Positions 15,001-17,767 of a stretch of 17,767 nucleotides of DNA are shown piece by piece. Each line of letters opens with the position of its first letter. Positions within the stretch are counted from its first letter, which is position 1. Made by a program: the position numbers. Where the stretch lies: the IMG/VR virus record IMGVR_UViG_3300039320_000013; one strand, given 5' to 3'. This stretch comes from a virus (lineage: Duplodnaviria > Heunggongvirae > Uroviricota > Caudoviricetes).

Positions 15001-17767
15001 CGTCCGGTTTCTTCCACCATCGCACCGGACCAGCGACCATGAGGGGACAACGCCGCGCTCCGTTAACGCGGTAAACCCCGGTGTGTATCGTTTTTGATTA
15101 TCCCCGCACACTCGCGCAGAGGAGTCTCCCTGTCGGGCTGCGGTCTCTGTTAATGCGGGGATACGGCGACAATACCGCGCATCAGCAAAACTTATTTCAG
15201 GCACTGAGTGCGGATATATTCCTGCGCCACTTCCAGCTGCTTCTGCATCAGCATCAACCGCTCTCTGAGAGTGAAATAATCCCGTTCAGCGGTGTCTGCC
15301 AGTCGGGGGCCGGTTGCATTATCCACGCCGGAGGTGCCGGTGGCTTCACGCACGGTACCGGGGCAGGTGGCGTTGATCCGCAGGCGCTTACGACCAGCGG
15401 CAACATCAGCGCGCAGAGTTTCATTTTCAGCTCTCGCATCGGCTAATTCCCTCGAGTATCTGGCATCAAGTGCAGCAACATCACGCTGGCGCTGCTGCAT
15501 ATCAGTAATGGTTGCATTTGCCAGCTCCAGCTCTCTGGCTTTTTTATCGCGCTGCGCTTTGTAAGTGATGGCGTTATCGCGGTAATGATTCAGCCCCAGA
15601 CTAAGCGCACCACAGGCCACCAGCAGAGCAATGATGACCACACACAGAACGCGGTTCATTTCACCACCAACGGATTGCCCAGATCAGAACAGCAATGGCT
15701 ATAATACGAATGGCAAAGGCTGCCGCTCTTGTTAAATCCAGACAGGCTGGCGTCTCCACTTCAATGCCTTTCATAATGGACAACCTCAGAAAGAATCTTT
15801 TATACTTCCTCACAGGGAAAGCACCTCCCTCACCATAATTTCTCCCTTGCCTTACTCAAGGTCAGAAAACACAAAACCCCGCTTGCAGCCAACAAACGGG
15901 GTTTTTACTTTTATTCACTTAGTTTTTGTCAGTTCGCAGGATTTCGTGTTATCCGCCCGCGTGGTCATTCCTCATTTTTCAGCAAAATATTCTGCTTATC
16001 TGTCGATACCCCAGCACGCCAGCGCGCTCTCCTGGTCACGACGGGATACCTGACCGTAACAGTTATTTGAGCGAATACGGCAGTCTCTGCCACCGTCCTT
16101 AATCCACCAGCGAATCGCTTCGCAGGCACCTTTTCGATCACCTGCATTAATTCGTCTGTAAAACGTCGACGGGAAACACTTACCGGGACCAATGTTGTAC
16201 GGACAGAATGACGCGATCCCCGCTTTCTGGGGTTCGGTCAGCGGCACTCTGATGTTTTTCTCCACCCACGCCAGCGCTTTATCACGCTCAATGGCGTTAA
16301 CCTGGTCGCATTTTTCCTTCGACAACTTCATGCCCGGAACGACAGGTTTGCCATCCACCATGATGGCACCACGGCAGATGGTCCAGATACCTGCACCATC
16401 ACGGTATGCCGTGGTGTGGTTGCCTTCCTTTTCATCCAGAAACTGGTCGAGAATGTCAGGCGCAGGCGCACCAGCGGCAATCAGCGCCAGAACGGCAGCC
16501 GACAGGCCGTATTTGATTTTGGTGTTCATGGATATATTAAATATTCAGCCGCTGTCCCTGGCCCACTAAATACGCACTTTAAGATAAGTCAGCCCCGGAT
16601 GAAGCCAGTAAGCCGGCACTTTTTTAAAGGGTGGAGTATTAAAATCACGAAGAAGAGCCTCCCGCACAATTGCATCCTTATCAGCACCACTGGCCAGCGC
16701 TTCAATCTCAGCGGCTACCTGAAGATATCCCATGCAACGGCCAACGCGCTTCATCAGCCCCTGCTTTTTATTGTTCTTCAGGTAATCAATGGCAAATTCA
16801 ATGAGCTCCTCACTGTGCTGGTGCGATGGAGGTGTTACTTTCCCATTTTCTGAGATGGTTATTTTCCCAGCATCACCGGATACAACAAAGGATGGCCGGT
16901 TACACTCCCATTCCAGCTCACTGAAATTATCATTATGAATACTGAAACACTCTGCGAGATTTCTGCTCATCACTTTCCGACAATAATCGTCAAACGCAGC
17001 AAACTGCTCATCGCGGCGTTTTTCTTCAGGCCGCTGAAGATGCTCTTTCAATCGTGAAGCGCAGCTTAGATGCCCGCGCGATCAAGAATAGCTTCTTTCA
17101 TTTCATCTGCTGCAAGCACCTCATTTTTTGTTGGGGCGCTTTTTTTCAATTCAGCGATATAGCGCTCCAGTTTTTCAATACGTGATTCAACATCATCTTT
17201 TTCTGACCGCAGTGTTGACGGCGGCATCTTCAGAGCATCAGTAATTCTTCCCGGTAGCTTTCCTTTGTAGGTTATCAACACATCCTGCGCCTCTAAAATT
17301 ATGGGGCGCTTTTCCGGCAACGGTTCGTTCCCTTCACATAACCCGGCAGCAACATCCATGAAAAACTGCTTCGCCTGCTTTTTCGCCTCAGCTTCGTAAA
17401 ACTCCAGCGTGGCACCTTCAGTACGGTCAAGACTAATCGCCACATTTGGCAACAACAGTGACGGATACCCACCAATTTCCAGTACCACAGTAACAGTAAT
17501 CTTATCCGGGTAATTATTTATCCCTTTAACAACCAGGGTAATGACTCCAACTTATTGATAGTGTTTTATGTTCAGATAATGCCCGATGACTTTGTCATGC
17601 AGCTCCACCGATTTTGAGAACGACAGCGACTTCCGTCCCAGCCGTGCCAGGTGCTGCCTCAGATTCAGGTTATGCCGCTCAATTCGCTGCGTATATCGCT
17701 TGCTGATTACGTGCAGCTTTCCCTTCAGGCGGGATTCATACAGCGGCCAGCCATCCGTCATCCATAT

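Follow-up and report, generated by a model that had tools for sequence, protein, structure and literature searches.

A small gene between R and Rz

The window analysed here is the whole 17,767-nucleotide stretch of the IMG/VR virus record IMGVR_UViG_3300039320_000013 (Caudoviricetes). It is the late region of an Escherichia coli lambdoid prophage, read along the minus strand, and our subject is the interval that separates its endolysin gene R from its spanin gene Rz. R (15996–16529, minus strand) encodes a 177-aa phage lysozyme of the signal-arrest-release (SAR) type (PF00959, E=2.4e-24; phrog_7), whose homologue in strain CE10 carries the annotation 'lysozyme'. The downstream neighbour of the insert is the i-spanin gene Rz (15192–15659, minus; PF03245, E=1.7e-49; phrog_13), in which the o-spanin gene Rz1 is embedded (15254–15439, minus). 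The gap between R and Rz measures exactly 336 bp (15660–15995) and, followed in the direction of the late operon, would comprise the 3′ untranslated region (UTR) of R, a two-way terminator, a 5′ UTR containing a short upstream open reading frame (uORF) and a strong ribosome-binding site, and a gene of 50 codons. We consider it probable that this insert serves the lysis cassette of the prophage as a slot for accessory genes, being neither an empty spacer nor primarily a gene for a small RNA (sRNA).

The small gene extends on the minus strand from a GTG at 15813 to a TGA at 15661–15663 (15661–15813), belongs to phrog_4493 and displays codon-level selection. The match to the family profile is full-length (E=1.6e-23, residues 1–50 on positions 1–54 of 56) and scores 83.3 bits with the 13 N-terminal codons, versus 55.8 bits for the 37-aa form that begins at the internal ATG 15774 and is annotated by PGAP as the hypothetical protein WP_000675927.1 (15661–15774, minus). 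Selection was assessed in 85 IMG/VR copies, which correspond to 13 unique DNA versions. The pooled ratio of nonsynonymous to synonymous polymorphism (pN/pS) was 0.10 in the frame of the small gene, versus 1.14 and 4.95 in the other sense frames, while the variable sites were distributed as 11/1/28 over codon positions 1/2/3, and no internal stop occurred in the open reading frame (ORF) in any of the 85 copies. The small ORF is under purifying selection at the protein level. The antisense frame that shares its third positions gave a pN/pS of 0.18, as expected of a shadow frame, and the 47-aa antisense ORF found there (15695–15838, plus), which is interrupted in the relative L248, was rejected as the shadow of the real gene. 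Of the versions, 11 start with GTG and two with ATG, the change from GTG to ATG having occurred twice independently in separate lineages.

The stop codon of the small gene and the ATG of Rz are 1 nt apart (junction TGG TGG TGA A ATG), and the last codons of the small gene, TGG TGG, constitute a purine-rich stretch ahead of that ATG. The initial annotation had described a hydrophobic mini-ORF of 37 aa abutting Rz; both the ORF and its 1-nt spacing to Rz stand, whereas its length is better read as 50 codons. In some copies (P0013, P0016, P0021, P0024 and L224) the TGA is lost, for instance by change to TGT, which yields a 73-aa form reading through into the Rz region in another frame.

The predicted protein has a basic N-terminus (RKYKRFFLR), a net charge of +6 and a single C-terminal hydrophobic helix (mean Kyte–Doolittle hydropathy 2.64) that ends in RWW, and homologues sharing about 50% identity retain both the helix and the RWW/KWW end. 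Searches of Pfam, NCBIfam and PHROGs gave no match to a holin, antiholin, spanin or any other lysis family, and PADLOC together with NCBIfam, searched for defence and curated families, gave no match to any of the small ORFs considered in this work. The organization also departs from that of an i-spanin, in which an N-terminal helix precedes a periplasmic domain, since here the helix is C-terminal and only RWW lies beyond it. A tblastn search against phage records recovered two partial matches only, a result that low-complexity filtering of the hydrophobic tail may explain, and scanning genome collections with the profile of the mini-ORF confirmed no locus; the endolysin was used as query for those scans in its place.

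Variation of the R–Rz interval

The separation of R from Rz, unlike the abutting lambda-type arrangement, had been noticed in the initial annotation, and both the coordinates and the comparison with other genomes agree with it. In the Qin prophage of K-12, rrrQ overlaps rzpQ, leaving no gap, and in 79 loci of other Enterobacterales with a related endolysin the detectable Rz homologue usually begins a few bases past the endolysin stop. Since R abuts or overlaps Rz in Qin and in most loci outside Escherichia, the 336-bp gap represents an insertion relative to the common arrangement. A 541-base query around the insert was found with 100% identity in CE10 and a dozen further complete genomes, and at least 80% of it is held by 668 of the 5426 complete E. 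coli genomes (about 12%). The insert is real and recurrent.

R–Rz intervals taken from about 80 IMG/VR loci encoding the same R fell into several length classes. A gap of 297/298 bp with one phrog_6632 ORF was found in about 24 loci, and three loci had the gap of 335/336 bp with the phrog_4493 ORF as in the window. In one locus the gap of 438 bp contained a 60-aa homologue (phrog_1115/4493) and a 28-aa remnant, while about 17 loci with gaps of 486/487 bp combined the 60-aa homologue with a phrog_4906 ORF. About 24 further loci carried three small ORFs in 642 bp, and in six loci with gaps of 978/993 bp an Ant-type antirepressor gene preceded a phrog_4906 ORF. The slot is thus occupied by one to three small ORFs with a single helix, drawn from three families (phrog_4493/1115, phrog_6632 and phrog_4906), or by an antirepressor gene plus one of them. 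A leader and a hairpin are common to all versions except that with the antirepressor gene, and in every version the last ORF abuts the ATG of Rz. The sibling families are under purifying selection too, with pN/pS values of 0.13, 0.18 and 0.47, and the phrog_4906 sibling XECs191 (= ECs_5732) of O157 Sakai has been reported as a translated novel small gene by RNA-seq and ribosome profiling (PMC5597208). In phage H-19B (L003, AF034975, 101–673), whose slot holds a phrog_6632 ORF, Rz is annotated with 190 aa, and the frame of Rz is open for 105 nt upstream across that ORF. We rejected the 190-aa Rz as a fusion, the start being probably over-extended as a choice of annotation.

Such mosaicism could be taken to mean that the interval is a non-functional scar of recombination, in which the ORF and the motifs are accidents of leftover junction DNA. 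The slot is indeed highly mosaic, and truncated remnants do occur, such as the 28-aa orfB form, the 73-aa read-through forms and a moron inserted inside the ORF in L249. However, the purifying selection is strong, all 85 copies keep the frame intact, and other cassettes contain homologues that share 50% identity; with the compensatory changes in the hairpin described below, this makes the explanation extremely unlikely.

At least four lysis cassettes, unrelated to one another, have a member of the phrog_4493 family after the endolysin, so that the recurrence of the mini-gene in lysis cassettes is a direct observation. Besides the cassette of R21-like lysozyme and Rz shared by the window and L246, these are a cassette of a holin with three transmembrane segments (3TM), a GH108 endolysin and a 60-aa lipoprotein in lineage B (L224–L245; L245, 176–1924), a 3TM holin with an M15 peptidase in L249–L251, and a holin_3_1 cassette in L248. 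In lineage B the order is 3TM holin, GH108 endolysin, hairpin, mini-gene, 60-aa lipoprotein (phrog_7528, with a mature part of about 29 aa) and HNH, and no Rz or Rz1 was seen among the genes called in the locus. The mini-protein and the small lipoprotein might there accomplish the outer-membrane step of lysis. In L249–L251 (about 1000–1390), the N-terminal extension of the mini-gene is interrupted by a Cys-rich ORF of 71 aa that has a terminator of its own, AAGGCCACAGAAGTGGCCTTTTTT, while the helix-coding core of the mini-gene is intact and has no obvious start codon.

The terminator hairpin and the leader of R

Upstream of the small gene lies a hairpin resembling an intrinsic terminator usable in both directions (15866–15912, both strands), formed by an A-tract, a GC-rich stem (15877–15885 / 15893–15901) and a T-tract. 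Its arms, CCCCGCTTG and CAAACGGGG, pair by Watson–Crick rules at eight of the nine positions, the sixth giving a C·A mismatch in the plus-strand RNA and a G·U wobble in the minus-strand RNA. On the minus strand, which is the sense of the late operon, the hairpin forms 14 pairs with a free energy of −21.9 kcal/mol and is followed by the tail UUUUGUGUUUU; on the plus strand, where it includes the mismatch, it reaches −14.2 kcal/mol with the tail UUUUUACUUUU. A terminator scan called it on the minus strand only, and runs of A or T occupy both flanks. By predicted pairing and flanks its design is that of a two-way terminator. The earlier description of a perfect 9-bp stem with T-runs on both strands is consequently correct for the T-runs, though not for the perfection of the stem.

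The succession of A-tract, stem and T-tract is present in every lineage although the hairpin sequences differ, and a GC-rich hairpin preceded by an A-run and followed by a T-run lies 33–63 nt upstream of the ORF in every type of cassette. When hairpin variants were aligned, the sixth stem pair appeared as U·G, A-U or G-C and the seventh as U-A, U·G or C-G. These compensatory changes, read directly off an alignment in which the lineage-B rows are one column out of register, indicate that the structure itself is under selection; the hairpin is conserved as a structure.

Between R and the hairpin there is a 3′ untranslated leader of about 83 nt (15913–15995, minus), whose variability was judged from an alignment of 16 unique inserts of the 336-bp class. 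We weighed whether it might give rise to a stable sense-strand RNA of about 130 nt, running from the R stop to the hairpin and either processed from the late messenger or internally promoted. The strength of the terminator on the minus strand and the retention of the block GGATAACACGAAATCCTGCGAACTG among inserts of the 336-bp class would fit such an RNA. Against it, the leader is the most variable segment within lineage A and is absent, short or unrelated in other lineages, lineage B and L246 having 15–100 nt from the endolysin stop to the hairpin; the predicted fold is unremarkable (z = −2.5, mostly due to the terminator), and the sigma70-like scan detected no promoter-like site on the minus strand. 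An RNA of this kind from the R 3′ UTR appears therefore very improbable.

The 5′ untranslated region and the plus strand

The 5′ UTR of the small gene (15814–15865, minus) contains two Shine–Dalgarno (SD) sites, GGGAG at 15842–15846 and the strong AGGGAGGUG at 15822–15830. The latter lies 8 nt before GTG 15813 and is predicted to form a duplex of −12.7 kcal/mol with the 3′ end of 16S rRNA, a value to be set against the −10 kcal/mol that only 3% of the window positions reach. The internal ATG 15774 has a weaker ribosome-binding site, of −6.3 kcal/mol at 7 nt, with GAGG as internal SD. The upstream GGGAG serves a uORF of eight codons, identified by reading the sequence (ATG GTG AGG GAG GTG CTT TCC CTG TGA; 15810–15836, minus), whose TGA overlaps the GTG of the small gene as GTGA. 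The same ATG-initiated uORF and GTGA overlap occur in L246 (about 409–429), where the UTR is only about 47% identical to that of the window lineage, and in lineage B a uORF of different length is present. The recurrence of the overlap in two lineages suggests that translation of the small gene may be coupled to that of the uORF by termination and reinitiation.

The 'CU-rich' stretch (15822–15846) that the initial annotation had likened to an sRNA seed is the reverse complement of AGGGAGGUG and of the uORF SD, and it is poorly conserved. This result bears directly on the proposal of an Hfq-dependent, trans-acting sRNA of the DicF/IpeX kind, which would use that stretch as seed against host or phage mRNAs. 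The plus strand does offer a terminator hairpin followed by a U-run, the predicted fold of the plus-strand RNA has a z-score of −3.5, and E. coli prophages are known to carry HnrS, Pas and AgvB/AsxR near their late genes (PMC13502914; bioRxiv 10.64898/2026.05.13.724894; PMC4104026). Nevertheless, the 5′ UTR, which would supply the body of the RNA, is the least conserved part of the locus, with a nucleotide identity of 0.39–0.56 between the window and four other lineages, versus 0.62–0.79 for the core of the ORF and 0.68–0.92 for its first 39 nt. No Rfam family was found at threshold; at gathering and permissive thresholds the best match was the rimP leader (E=0.041), through the terminator only, and the weak matches are generic terminator look-alikes. 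The published prophage sRNAs are placed in other intervals: HnrS between the YnfO-like gene and the 3′ end of Rz, Pas between the esterase and holin genes, and svsR and the EcOnc peaks that could be placed likewise outside the R–Rz gap. The window lacks the HnrS motif that we deduced from the sequence of Sakai Sp12, and a literature search for an sRNA or a named gene between R and Rz yielded no sRNA placed there. In the Sakai table of cross-linking and analysis of cDNA with Hfq (Hfq-CRAC; Tree 2014, EcOnc), where the peaks near the lysis regions of Sp4, Sp9, Sp10 and Sp12 were checked, no peak was identified in an R–Rz gap. One EcOnc candidate near the late genes of Sp4 was discarded for lying outside the lysis cassette. 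With the seed accounted for as an SD complement and no published sRNA found to map here, we regard a trans-acting sRNA as highly unlikely.

The plus strand has further been credited with a sigma70-like promoter. The motif, TGGACA-18-TATACT (15777–15806, plus), is present with 10 of 12 consensus positions, but it lies within the coding region, antisense to codons 3–13 of the small gene, and does not rise above chance: shuffles of a 1.7-kb region predicted 1.0 such matches where one was found, and the probability of at least one 10/12 match in a shuffled 336-bp insert was 0.08. Nine matches of at least 9/12 were detected in the window, all of them on the plus strand and none on the coding strand; sequence antisense to the genes is in general promoter-like here, and this bias makes a single antisense promoter-like match weak evidence. 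From this motif to the hairpin, a hypothetical cis-antisense RNA of about 96 nt (15813–15910, plus) can be drawn on geometry. The previously suggested plus-strand RNA of about 95 nt is possible as far as geometry goes, and the succession of promoter-like hexamers 18 nt apart, an interval of about 60 nt and a terminator usable on that strand recurs in diverged relatives.

Such an RNA, starting near 15813, would be fully complementary to the small gene's 5′ UTR, SD and start codon. Its function could be to silence leaky expression of the small gene in lysogens, and of Rz via coupling, or else to direct cleavage of the late mRNA by RNase III; it is compatible with the reading of the ORF as a protein gene, and a toxic peptide would make the pair resemble a type I toxin–antitoxin system. 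Several comparative observations argue for it. Lineage A, lineage B and L246 agree exactly in both hexamers and in their 18-nt spacing despite the divergence of the core, and the spacing together with T1, A2 and T6 of the −10 element is kept in seven of seven versions (TATACT, TACACT, TATAGT, TATAAT). In L247 the 1-nt indel that breaks the N-terminal frame falls outside the −35/−10 interval, and the motif there is CCGACA-18-TATAAT, with a perfect −10. In three of the four comparisons between lineages no segment is better conserved than the 39 nt that bear the promoter motif, and their synonymous rate is 0.28, versus 0.67 in the core. Moreover, a terminator usable on the plus strand exists in all lineages, and in L246 the antisense direction is the better one.

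These arguments have to be balanced against the chance level of the motif and the plus-strand bias of the window. The 39 nt also encode K-Y-K-R...L-S-I and include the internal SD of ATG 15774, both of which confound their conservation, and the deficit of synonymous change falls short of significance (Fisher p about 0.09). The −35 element falls to 3–4 of 6 positions in the common orfA type and in L248, no sigma70-like match was called in the 487-bp class, and the hairpin of lineage A is clearly weaker on the plus strand. The Sakai Hfq-CRAC result described above is also on the negative side, with the limit that carriage of the phrog_4493 ORF by Sakai is not established. The supplement of the EDL933 paper on transcription start sites contained no sequences matching the locus. 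On balance we hold the cis-antisense RNA to be possible, though not probable.

Discussion

Our analysis supports that the R–Rz interval is an accessory slot occupied by a protein-coding gene, and it allows a tentative scheme for how that gene would be expressed. The minus strand showed no sigma70-like site in the stretch from the hairpin to the ORF, nor anywhere else in the window; hence, with a terminator ahead of it and no sense-strand promoter after that terminator, the small gene should be reached only by Q-modified, terminator-resistant RNA polymerase coming from the late promoter. Following established lambdoid biology, read-through under Q would make the small gene late, its product being synthesized together with holin, endolysin and spanins. 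The stop codon 1 nt before the ATG of Rz and the terminal TGG TGG indicate that Rz is probably translationally coupled to the small gene, in such a way that translation of the latter would feed into Rz and TGG TGG would serve as the ribosome-binding site of Rz. In an uninduced lysogen the terminator would protect the packaging genes, Rz/Rz1 and the small gene against Q-independent transcription straying in from upstream, and on the plus strand it would keep antisense transcripts out of R and the holin gene.

Within this scheme the most likely role of the small protein is that of an accessory or modulator of lysis in the inner membrane, a function that we deduce only from where its gene lies. 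Several observations weigh against our overall interpretation. The protein matches no known holin, antiholin, spanin or defence family, and the phrog_4493 family is very narrow, with 19 representatives at E<=1e-3 among 1.84 billion proteins. The gene may start at GTG 15813 or at ATG 15774. In L247 the N-terminal extension is out of frame owing to a 1-nt indel, and the 39 nt encoding this extension are conserved above the core at the nucleotide level, an extra conservation that protein coding alone does not explain well. Finally, the ribosome-profiling support belongs to a sibling family of the slot and not to phrog_4493.

A more elaborate model, which we find rather improbable, would combine both strands in a two-layer switch, with a Q-dependent, cationic membrane lysis protein on the one hand and its silencing in lysogens by a constitutive cis-antisense RNA, stopped at the two-way terminator, on the other. 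The lysis role in this model would be most plausible in cassettes like those of lineage B, where no Rz/Rz1 was seen called and the 60-aa lipoprotein gene comes next. The two-layer arrangement would amount to a failsafe of the type I toxin–antitoxin kind within the late operon, which would also silence the coupled envelope gene. An antisense promoter located inside codons 1–13 would explain why the 39 nt are the best conserved segment even where the frame is broken.

Cis-antisense RNAs of phages and type I antitoxins include lambda OOP, P22 sar, Sok, OrzO and OhsC (partly reviewed in PMC12197685). Like them, the hypothetical RNA would be constitutive and short, with about 96 nt; a two-way terminator would end it, and it would be complementary to the translation start region of a small gene for a hydrophobic protein. 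The predicted 50-aa protein has the size and character of a type I toxin, that is, a hydrophobic membrane peptide of <60 aa, and by geometry the putative antisense RNA would overlap the start region of its gene. In contrast to type I systems, the putative 'toxin' has no promoter of its own, the minus strand being devoid of sigma70-like sites in the window, and the only Rfam resemblance to this group is a match to ohsC with E=5.7, which falls on the opposite strand and is accounted for by the terminator. HnrS, Pas and AgvB/AsxR, as short RNAs ended by terminators in lambdoid late regions, are likewise similar to the hypothetical plus-strand RNA, but they occupy other intervals and, unlike it, have conserved bodies.

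Regarding the protein, MS2 L, the 'disruptin' gp28 of phiKT and the 'releasin' gp25 of phage Mu (for Mu, PMC9239132) belong to the small lysis proteins that combine a basic N-terminus with a hydrophobic C-terminus, or to other lysis accessories with a single helix. The window protein is similarly tiny, cationic and predicted to be membrane-active, and its gene lies in a lysis cassette beside a SAR endolysin gene; it differs in having no sequence similarity to lysis families in Pfam, PHROGs or NCBIfam and in having a full set of holin, endolysin and spanin genes nearby. Close parallels are the siblings phrog_4906 (ECs_5732/XECs191) and phrog_6632 (H-19B type), which occupy the same slot after the endolysin gene and the hairpin or the antirepressor gene and encode proteins of 43–49 aa. 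As in the window, these proteins have a single hydrophobic helix, the last ORF abuts the ATG of Rz, and the genes are under purifying selection. The families are unrelated in sequence, and the phrog_4906 protein is near-neutral with a central helix, whereas the window protein has a basic N-terminus and a C-terminal helix.

The insert also recalls a moron: it is additional DNA, mosaic and exchangeable, that separates two genes lying side by side in related phages, and a terminator flanks it. According to Juhala et al. (2000), in the form in which PMC4104026 cites them, the classic moron consists of promoter, gene and terminator and is expressed from the prophage. Here, by contrast, the terminator comes before the gene and a promoter on the sense strand was not detected, a layout from which expression should depend on antitermination by Q, unlike that of a classic moron. 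The locus is, then, no novel type of element: its small gene, already annotated as hypothetical, occupies an accessory slot that is mosaic.

The insert occurs in this version in about one in eight complete E. coli genomes, and mini-proteins of three unrelated families compete for the slot. If the small protein acts in lysis, it would be an added player in the holin/SAR-endolysin/spanin cassettes of prophages of the Shiga-toxin type and other lambdoid prophages, in which the timing of lysis governs both the yield of phage and the release of toxin. The antisense RNA, if real, would exemplify the insulation of late lysis genes at the RNA level in lysogens.

Other features of the window

Along the minus strand the gene order is a DUF1327-like gene, R, Rz/Rz1 and a gene for a lipoprotein with a TonB_C domain, and beyond the latter lie the YnfO-like gene (plus strand), HNH, terminase, portal, a protease–capsid fusion and tail genes. 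The lipoprotein gene (113 aa; 14527–14868, minus) is situated between the 3′ end of Rz and the YnfO-like gene and has a moron-like look. The YnfO-like gene occupies 14134–14385 on the plus strand, so that the interval toward Rz is 14386–14868; its counterpart in Sakai Sp12 appears to carry HnrS (EcOnc10), as judged from coordinates of an old version, a terminator and a CUUCU motif. On the other side of the insert, the ORFs 17066–17488 and 16566–17051 (both minus) match the N- and C-terminal halves, respectively, of phrog_1085 (296 positions, with DUF1327 at the N-terminus), and a single gene between holin and R seems to be split into two adjacent ORFs. A fragment of an IS1 transposase gene is found at the end of the window (17552–17761; PF03400, E=1e-36).

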